A DNA stretch of 63,649 nucleotides, the filler included, from Folioceros fuciformis (Eukaryota), in NCBI GenBank assembly GCA_049999805.1. It is 26 parts of 26 records of this genome, joined end to end, with 100 filler letters (N's around TTAATTAATTAA, not from the genome) between each part and the next. Parts side by side here need not be neighbours in the genome. Positions count along the whole stretch, not along the records: positions 54,678 to 56,583 come from JBNGIO010002705.1; 25 more parts are not named here. The stretch is one strand, 5' to 3'. The position numbers and the translations under genes are program-made. Under the pieces are notes generated by a model. The model saw only the letters and a list, made by a program, of their open reading frames with translations. It searched no databases and was not told the DNA's origin. Positions 55,474 to 55,980 of the stretch are shown here, in pieces (position 1 is the stretch's first letter; each line of letters begins with the position of its first letter).

Positions 55474-55980
55474 CTTGTTATACTCATCAGTCTCTACTGC
55501 GCTTGCATTAGGAGGTATGTTAGCCTTCTCCCACACTAAGGTCTGAATGGTTCCCTTCTTGCACCATGGCCGAAGTGCTTCCCTAGCCTGTGTAATCAGA
55601 TCCACACCATGCATGAGAACCAACGTATACACATTACTGCTGGTGCATTCTGAAAACCCTCGAATCATGTCCTTAAGCTCTTCGCTTGTCAGCTGCCTAT
55701 CGTATTCATGTCGTTGCAGTCCGCGAGGCAAATCTGCGAATAAGAGAGTATACGGTCGTTTTACCAGAAATGCTTTCATCTCCAGAACATTTCGATGGAT
55801 AACTTGATACTTAGTCTTATTGTTATCGTTTGGGACTCTGAACTCCGATAATCCTGCATCCATATCTGCATCTGCGAGTCTCTACTTTTCTTCTTCCATG
55901 CGCTTCCAATTTCTAGCAGAGTGAACATAATCTTGAAAAGGCTTCGGCAATGCTTCAAGGTTTGTGAGGTTCACTGGTTT
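55474..55980 (-). pseudogene. Exon encoding an N4/N6 DNA amino-methyltransferase-like (beta-class) domain; one internal TAG
   Basis: Acceptor TTTTTGGCAG then AAA (phase 0). [11 protein letters not shown]...[11 protein letters not shown]...YD...TLVWEKAN resembles IHGD.LE..DL(I/V)FADPPY...IIW.K.N. The catalytic tetrad is non-canonical (DLPR). Confidence 0.5.

Follow-up and report, generated by a model that had tools for sequence, protein, structure and literature searches.

Amino-methyltransferases of the PF01555 type are rare in eukaryotes, and the parts of the literature available to us describe two functional cases, N4CMT of the rotifer Adineta vaga and DN4MT1 of the liverwort Marchantia polymorpha. 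According to the accessible text of Rodriguez et al. (2022), N4CMT has an S-P-P-Y tetrad and a C-terminal chromodomain, is present as a single allelic pair, and was reported at that time without eukaryotic homologues; mutation of its SPPY to APPA abolishes activity, so the first and last positions of the tetrad matter. The Marchantia enzymes MpDN4MT1a/b, which write N4-methylcytosine (4mC) in sperm, are described in the accessible part of a preprint (Walker et al., 2021 preprint) as two tandem genes with the sequence TSPPY and no extra domains, and they cluster with N4-cytosine (N4C) enzymes. Prokaryote-like adenine methyltransferases have also been found in DIRS and long terminal repeat (LTR) retrotransposons, some of them together with cytosine methyltransferases. 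For these elements, termed DAM-TEs, the portion of the preprint that we could consult reports that orphan degenerate copies are common, that no activity was seen in E. coli, and that the domains align with T4 and E. coli Dam and keep an Asn-Pro-Pro triplet (bioRxiv 10.64898/2026.05.21.726589). In this study we analyse a methyltransferase-like exon on the minus strand, 55980-55474, of a 63,649-base stretch of DNA from Folioceros fuciformis (assembly GCA_049999805.1), hereafter the window, which consists of 26 short contigs of 1.1-7.5 kb joined by spacers of the form N44-TTAATTAATTAA-N44. The exon sits on a 1906-base contig (54678-56583), and the original prediction took it for a spliced exon resembling a bacterial-type N4-cytosine/N6-adenine methyltransferase. 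Our results indicate, with a probability that we put at about 85%, that it is a pseudogenised internal exon from a many-copy, intron-bearing plant family that is beta-class amino-methyltransferase-like and of prokaryotic type.

This family resembles each of the described systems only in part. The closest are the CcrM-like N6-adenine enzymes (PF01555, often with a RAMA domain, PF18755), which have the same motif order, give the best profile and fold matches and share the collinear register ILQGD...DLxFAD-x-P-x...VWxKTN...QKP...D-x-x-x-G-S-G-T. However, CcrM-like enzymes have the tetrad D-P-P-Y and the motif I DPFxGSGTT, whereas the family has D-L-P-R or D-[IVA]-P-[YF] and D-x-C-x-GSG, has no RAMA domain, and differs further by its eukaryotic introns, its extra N-terminal regions and its many genomic copies; on the NCBIfam CcrM model its members score 27-30 bits against a cut-off of 830. 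As far as the published descriptions reach, the family is like N4CMT in being a eukaryotic, intron-containing PF01555 enzyme that came from bacteria, and like MpDN4MT1a/b in being a bacterial-type permuted amino-methyltransferase of a land plant, whose named relatives are also from a liverwort. Those same descriptions set it apart from MpDN4MT1a/b by its DLPR or DVPY tetrad, its many copies and its N-terminal extensions. With the DAM-TEs, as the accessible text presents them, it shares the amplification of a prokaryote-type amino-methyltransferase in eukaryotic repeated DNA, but the DAM-TE enzymes are of the Dam-type class with N-P-P, are encoded by retrotransposons and have no introns.

Relatives of the exon and their likeness to beta-class enzymes

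The minus-strand frame is free of stops over 55881-55471 (137 amino acids) and contains all of the strings that the original prediction had quoted from it. The single internal TAG, the D-L-P-R tetrad and the absence of the S-adenosylmethionine (SAM)-binding motif I from contig 54678-56583, the last in tblastn searches with the relatives, are likewise confirmed. The exon encodes the N-terminal catalytic half, motif IV to motif VIII, of a beta-class amino-methyltransferase-like domain (Table 1), and this half is predicted to run from a strand with F-A-D at its end through the D-L-P-R-G loop, a helix, the YTLVLMH strand and another helix to the start of a VWxKxN hairpin. The SAM-binding half, which reads YQKP...D-x-C-x-G-S-G in the relatives, would lie on other exons, off the 1.9-kb contig.

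An exhaustive phmmer scan of 1.84 billion cluster-representative proteins found 11 relatives at E<=1e-3, three of them at E<=1e-10 and the best at 1e-15. The best relative is about 30% identical to the exon, and the alignments span query residues 6-161, across the TAG. By tblastn, 10 of 16 relatives match 55989-55516, with a best E of 2.8e-22. Because the relatives are collinear across the TAG, we consider this a real coding remnant that the TAG interrupts. A chance open frame in repeat DNA might be suspected, since the exon has no direct match to a known family, but the E of 1e-15 among 1.84 billion proteins and the collinearity over 156 residues refute this explanation, to which we assign a practically negligible probability. 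Two word-index searches of 5.8 billion proteins with the exon gave no match, and among metagenome contigs none of 292 pattern matches was confirmed as a relative.

The relatives point to the class of the family. PF01555 scores above the Pfam cut-off (26.7 bits) in five of the 11 relatives (P0003, P0005, P0007, P0010 and P0011), and among the remaining six, one lies below that cut-off and four are N-terminal fragments. The PF01555 signal is always C-terminal (YQKP...W-V-L-D-x-C-x-G-S-G), mostly from the motif I part; P0019 and P0023 score 45.6 and 36.4 bits, respectively. Two of the 11 relatives come from the liverwort Riccia sorocarpa, where they are annotated. In a search with the family profile 7,999 candidates were scored, and 29 proteins reached E<=1e-3. 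Sixteen of these are gene models, often fragmentary, that are spread over eight different contigs or chromosomes of R. sorocarpa; the rest are three Logan proteins, eight bacterial or metagenomic CcrM-like proteins (PF18755 plus PF01555) and two other bacterial PF01555 proteins. The Riccia members carry the automatic annotation 'DNA methylase N-4/N-6 domain-containing protein'. In every full-length relative motif IV precedes motif I, which itself reads D-x-C-x-G-[ST]-G, and the family would thus encode a permuted SAM-dependent amino-methyltransferase-like protein. The original view of an amino-methyltransferase-like gene is therefore correct as to class, but the exon is in fact one decayed member of a family with many copies.

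Profile comparisons lead to the same enzymes. The family profile matches M1.HpyAVI/DpnA at 2e-9, M.RsrI at 6e-9, CcrM at 2e-8 and M.MboIIA at 2.4e-8, the last over profile positions 62-267, and it also matches M.BceJIV and, at 6e-4, the rotifer N4CMT. When the family was compared with eight CcrM-like proteins by hhalign, the probability was 98.65% (E 4.8e-16, 225 columns), and the N-terminal half alone, with the window sequence as first row, gave the same register at 57% (E 1e-4). The three motifs named in the original prediction align in register with the bacterial beta-class enzymes in both hhalign and MAFFT, as illustrated by VWEKANIPPN, which pairs with VWIKTNPMPN. A model of the full-length DLPR-type relative P0007 had a predicted local distance difference test score (pLDDT) of 79.2 and a predicted template-modelling score (pTM) of 0.81, and 188 chains matched it at E<=1e-3 in Foldseek. 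The best match was CcrM (6pbd_B, E 6.5e-15, TM 0.61), followed by M.RsrI (2.9e-12), M.BceJIV (5.7e-12), M1.HpyAVI (1.1e-11), M.MboIIA (5.8e-11), M.PvuII (1.2e-9) and N4CMT (8s9m/n/o, 7.7e-9 to 5e-8). The profile and structure comparisons thus bear out the proposed amino-methyltransferase class, but not N4-cytosine in particular, since the nearest profiles are those of CcrM-like N6-adenine enzymes.

The same motif order is found in the MT-A70 family (METTL3/METTL4/IME4-like), and METTL3-METTL14 and MTA1c chains do occur among the fold matches, at ranks 3-10 for the model of the exon half-domain and at ranks 39-50 for P0007. However, METTL3 matches the P0007 model at 1.2e-7, eight orders weaker than CcrM, and PF05063 is found neither in the exon (no Pfam match at E<=10) nor in any of the 11 relatives at E<=1, where PF01555 is found instead. 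Membership of the MT-A70 family therefore appears barely credible to us.

Variation in the motif IV tetrad

Had the paralogs lost the D-x-P position, the proposed class would be in doubt; instead, all 25 aligned rows keep both the Asp and the second Pro of motif IV. Compared with the consensus (D/N/S)-P-P-(Y/F/W), the exon keeps positions 1 and 3 of the tetrad and is changed at positions 2 and 4. Sequence alignments divide the rows into three types. D-L-P-R-G-L is found in 7/7 rows formed by the window, P0002, P0003, P0004, P0005, P0007 and P0014, of which P0002 and P0014 belong to one cluster of gene models; D-[IVA]-P-[YF]-G-F in 10/10 other eukaryotic rows, including all four Riccia rows; and D-P-P-Y-N-L in 8/8 bacterial rows. 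Among the DLPR rows pairwise identity is only 30-55%, and the invariance of DLPRGL among rows so diverged argues for selection during the divergence of the family rather than for decay. We infer from these alignments that the change from Tyr to Arg would be a selected sub-family trait and not the decay of one copy. In a quick tree the eukaryotic family stands apart from the bacteria with 100% support in the Shimodaira-Hasegawa-like approximate likelihood ratio test (SH-aLRT).

It is well recognized that in amino-methyltransferases binding of the target amino group falls to the first residue of the tetrad together with the backbone, and that the aromatic residue stacks on the flipped base. Active Erm and KsgA enzymes have the tetrad N-[IL]-P-Y and provide, although from a different family, a precedent for an aliphatic residue at position 2. 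Because these enzymes are active, the D-[IVA]-P-Y lineage may well be active too. For Arg at position 4, we know of no precedent. METTL14 (EPPL) and Tetrahymena MTA9 are degenerate partners, and METTL14, which has lost the aromatic tetrad residue, is non-catalytic; both are precedents for a non-catalytic SAM-fold paralogue, again from different families. Motif I is intact in P0003, P0005 and P0007, and because of this the DLPR proteins would most likely still bind SAM, with catalysis impaired or re-targeted. They may have become the partner, non-catalytic or regulatory, of a D-x-P-Y paralogue, or may work on a changed substrate, and judged by their tetrad they are unlikely to be classical writers of N6-adenine (N6A) or N4C methylation in DNA.

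The D-x-P-Y-G loop also resembles the DPPYG of RNA guanine-N2 enzymes. This likeness is suggested by two observations: residues 82-169 of the Riccia protein P0011, its motif IV region, score 23.1 bits on PF01170 (UPF0020) against a cut-off of 22.3, and Trm14 and aTrm11 are the best matches of the half-domain model in VIA-align. PF01170 comprises m2G RNA methyltransferases of the RlmKL/Trm11 type.

Shared intron, genomic copies and decay of the exon

On another contig of the window (48966-50314), we have identified a preceding exon of the same gene type (Table 1), which shows 35% identity to P0014 (BLASTP, E 3e-17); its part at 49078-49413 matches P0014 residues 92-199 (tblastn, E 1.6e-13), and residues 206-362 of the same protein match the exon at 55980-55474. 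The latter begins in phase 0, matching the phase-0 end of the upstream exon at 49422, and its 5' end reads ...gctttttggCAG|AAACCA. An intron at this position is also seen in three database gene models, which belong to one cluster: P0014 is spliced there (...SFGGL|RVRSVGN), P0013 runs on into the donor (GGL-VSEF...), and P0002 starts within the intron and reads through its ...CAG acceptor (...VLQ|RVRSVGN), just as the window does (...FWQ|KPVNLTN). The shared intron position and phase 0 on both sides support the splice site at 55980 and its phase. The 3' boundary at 55474 is not established, because no relative aligns past 55516 (tblastn), the donor is poor (AAG|GTCTAA) and the edge of a repeat lies at 55479. 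At this edge, 15 contigs of sequencing run X1 that match 55203-55479 continue unlike the window and unlike one another (agreement 0.38), which marks it as the edge of another dispersed repeat. The insertion of that repeat probably cuts this exon copy about 5 bases before its end at 55474. Thus, of the exon limits first proposed, the 5' end stands on its acceptor and shared intron, and the 3' end is doubtful.

The gene type of the exon is present in many genomic copies, in agreement with the original view of an intron-containing gene in a repeat context. Two DNA runs of one sample, X1 and X2, with the same coded species label, contain 44% and 36%, respectively, of the sampled words of the exon's contig, and their contigs were placed on it at >=80% likeness. 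At variant sites over the exon, 8-20 different contigs per run carry another letter, at 80-99% likeness; over the whole contig, transitions account for 146 of 260 differing places in X1. Contig records 7, 8 and 16 run from 55844, 55875 and 55924 to 56098-56148, crossing the acceptor into at least 120-170 intron bases, which shows that the multiplied unit is unspliced genomic DNA. A unit that includes its intron fits amplification at the DNA level, as a mobile element or in segments, and does not fit retroposition. Mobility itself is suggested solely by this multiplicity, because no full-length copy, terminal repeats or transposase was seen.

The copies also reveal how this member has decayed. 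At 55884, G replaces A in 16 contigs of X1 (383.4 of 426.8 summed depth) and in 10 contigs of X2 (245 of 284.2), which makes the codon CAG; the TAG is therefore found in this copy alone or in a minority of copies. In the quick tree, the window row has a branch of 2.81 against a median of 0.52, the second longest. With a TAG where most copies read CAG, a long branch and a probable cut by a repeat near 55479, this exon copy cannot make protein.

These results bear on where the exon came from. Bacterial, phage or giant-virus DNA, either as contamination or as a recent endogenous viral insertion, was considered because the fold of P0007 matches phage, Pandoravirus and Megaviridae methylases from viral libraries about as well as bacterial ones (approximately 2e-12) and because an Atlas feature search with the exon pointed to phage clusters. 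Viral methylases that match so strongly mean that the fold does not identify the donor. However, the splice sites are of plant type, the intron position is shared, and the contig has in common with three other plant transposable element (TE) contigs a repeat of about 315 bases; the family is only 20-23% identical to its bacterial relatives in the 25-row alignment, and none of 11 pattern matches among IMG/VR viral contigs was confirmed as a relative (pattern plus tblastn). Foreign DNA is therefore a highly improbable source. That the exon is a Dam-like (DAM) domain of a DIRS or LTR retrotransposon might be expected in a window rich in copia and gypsy fragments, all the more as the accessible part of a 2026 preprint reports adenine methyltransferases in eukaryotic retrotransposons (bioRxiv 10.64898/2026.05.21.726589). 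Against it stand the PF01555 assignment, the permuted motif order and the D-L-P-R tetrad, where that text describes alignment with Dam and an Asn-Pro-Pro triplet, as well as the intron common to other DNA copies; moreover, no reverse transcriptase (RT) or tyrosine recombinase was found on contig 54678-56583. We regard such an origin as extremely doubtful.

An exon of an intact, host-domesticated DNA methyltransferase that writes 4mC or N6-methyladenine (6mA), in the manner of MpDN4MT1a/b, would agree with the liverwort origin of the named relatives (Riccia sorocarpa), with the bacterial-type 4mC enzymes described for Marchantia in the available text, and with the motif I kept in the full-length relatives. 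This alternative, which we consider quite improbable, is opposed by the in-frame TAG, the long branch and the 8-20 diverged contigs per site; by DLPR in place of the TSPPY described for Marchantia and the CcrM-like character of the nearest prokaryotic profiles; and by the absence of any Marchantia protein among the 29 profile matches of a search limited by its word index.

Several results weigh against a pseudogenised exon of a many-copy amino-methyltransferase-like family. With the exon alone, no Pfam family was found at E<=10, no PHROGs or NCBIfam family was found, and no solved chain in the PDB matched by phmmer except Rrp1 at E 0.059, which we take as chance; a profile of five N-terminal fragments alone retrieved no methyltransferase from the PDB. 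The model of the exon half-domain (pLDDT 74.4) shows the expected strand-loop-helix-strand-helix pattern, but its Foldseek matches are weak, the best being CcrM (E 0.037) and none reaching E<=1e-3, and its VIA-align matches to Trm14 (Z 6.2), aTrm11 (Z 6.1) and M.MboIIA (Z 4.4) lie within the range that this tool calls common or noise. The P0007 model was built on 25 rows, eight of them bacterial CcrM-like, which may bias its fold. The branch that sets the DLPR rows to one side has no more than 77% SH-aLRT support, and the quick tree was computed with the tetrad columns included. Over the exon the summed depth amounts to 200-1070 and in the least covered bins to 15-21, and depth of this kind is not a copy number. 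Recent copies show no sign of constraint: the 15 best-supported exon differences, besides which there are 266 more, comprise 5 synonymous and 9 non-synonymous changes and 1 removal of the stop. Finally, full-length copies, terminal repeats and a transposase were not seen, as mentioned above.

Table 1. Features of the window that relate to the exon and its gene type
Feature	Positions	Strand	Remarks
Exon as first delimited	55474-55980	-	homology to relatives detectable over 55989-55516
Splice acceptor, AG at 55982-55981	55981-55995	-	T-rich gctttttgg in front
In-frame TAG, codon 37 of P0001	55882-55884	-	frame open upstream of TAG to 55992
VIHRNVLE	55780-55803	-	counterpart of ILQGDCLQ, the stretch before motif IV in CcrM-like enzymes
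Motif IV tetrad D-L-P-R, then G-L	55723-55734	-	aligned to D-P-P-Y
YTLVLMHG	55606-55629	-	predicted beta strand (123-127) ending in family-invariant His (H128)
LVWEKAN, then IPPN	55519-55539	-	counterpart of VVWIKTN; IPPN pairs with PMPN
Candidate donor GTCTAA	55468-55473	-	weak, C at +3; includes frame-closing TAA
Different dispersed repeat, edge at 55479	55203-55479		from DNA-run contigs; records 1, 10
Intron sequence common to other genomic copies	55983-56148	-	DNA-run records 7, 8, 16
Very-high-copy repeat, about 315 bases	54784-55097		380 bases downstream of exon
Preceding exon of same gene type, contig 48966-50314	49078-49422	+	ends ...FQTAFPKV, phase 0, GTAAGT donor 49423-49428
Further upstream homology to Riccia sorocarpa relatives	48968-49066	+	other frame; weak, E 0.03-0.09
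Weak motif I resemblance, QQRP...WFLAHFSE..W.L..GSGG	43990-44115	-	end of contig 41504-44173

Sequence context and implications of the family

Other stretches of the window resemble parts of this gene type. The weak homology at 48968-49066, similar to Riccia 'GRLWEVQESIFRKWE', crosses an in-frame TAG with a change of frame, so that this copy is decayed too. The stretch at 43990-44115 matches relatives of the P0010 type at E 0.015-0.018, through four queries of one cluster that are not independent, and on the strength of this sequence likeness it is possibly the decayed SAM-binding exon of a related copy. It adjoins a copy of the repeat of about 315 bases. The intron on contig 48966-50314 contains motifs of the GTGCGCCGG...CCGGCGCAC type that resemble 56086-56340, upstream of the exon at 55980-55474. 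The window protein P0018 gave no BLASTP match to P0019.

The window as a whole has the content of plant-like repeat DNA: besides fragments of Ty1/copia RT, integrase and gag, it contains an integrase of the gypsy type, a 'plant transposon protein' (PF20167) and exons of a gene that resembles triose-phosphate transporters. The last are two frames at 14073-15056 on the minus strand that match PF03151 (triose-phosphate transporter family) at E 5e-6 and 4e-4, and they probably belong to an ordinary host gene amid repeat contigs. The repeat of about 315 bases is common to four contigs (54784-55097, 57144-57418, 43500-43758 and 24785-24511) at 78-81% identity, has in the DNA runs a depth, summed over contigs, of 1e4-1e5, and contains three 23-base tandem units at 54884-54952. 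Run X5, guessed to be RNA, covers only 54714-54886 of the exon's contig, that is, this high-copy repeat, and has no bearing on expression.

The original prediction also spoke of the exon as a second and different methyltransferase class in this TE fraction, and this is borne out by an open frame of 118 amino acids at 3233-3586 on the plus strand of contig 1-5084, which matches PF00145, the C-5 cytosine DNA methylase family (E 1e-5; 25.6 bits, cut-off 22; profile positions 49-93). This frame may be a TE-borne DNA methyltransferase and the other class that was meant. It lies directly downstream of a frame at 2235-3224 with a weak gag-asp_proteas match (E 8e-4).

The N-terminal extension of the Riccia members deserves a separate mention. 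Residues 1-310 of P0019 have no PDB sequence match at E<=10, and outside its methyltransferase part the protein has no Pfam, PHROGs or NCBIfam match. Atlas models of this N-terminal region resemble ParB_N, HTH_ParB or DndB-like folds (TM 0.39-0.52, under the tool's bar), and by Atlas features it resembles fungal DUF3723 (0.93), a domain mentioned in papers on Starship elements, as far as their accessible text goes. A phage 'ParB/Sulfiredoxin' protein is found among the fold matches of the methyltransferase part of P0007, at rank 22. We consider a fusion of a ParB-like part with a methyltransferase in the Riccia members to be a lead only.

In our literature searches, from which supplements and most subscription papers were out of reach, no published description of this family was found. 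We speculate, tentatively and with doubt as to the whole, that Riccia sorocarpa and the window organism share an undescribed land-plant family, amplified at the DNA level and possibly mobile, which derives from the methyltransferase of a prokaryotic or phage mobile element, perhaps as a ParB-like fusion, and which now consists of two lineages, one with D-[IVA]-P-[YF] that may still methylate adenine or cytosine and one with D-L-P-R that would serve as a non-catalytic partner or have acquired a new substrate. The value of this locus is in the family that it reveals, the window copy itself being a dead fragment. Such a family raises the question of what a beta-class methyltransferase does once its base-stacking aromatic residue has become arginine, and whether the repeats of plants bring with them 6mA/4mC machinery of their own, or else a decoy of such machinery. 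If our speculation is correct, this would be the third independent entry of bacterial amino-methyltransferases into eukaryotic chromatin biology, after the rotifer N4CMT and Marchantia DN4MT1, and it would have come about via repeated DNA.

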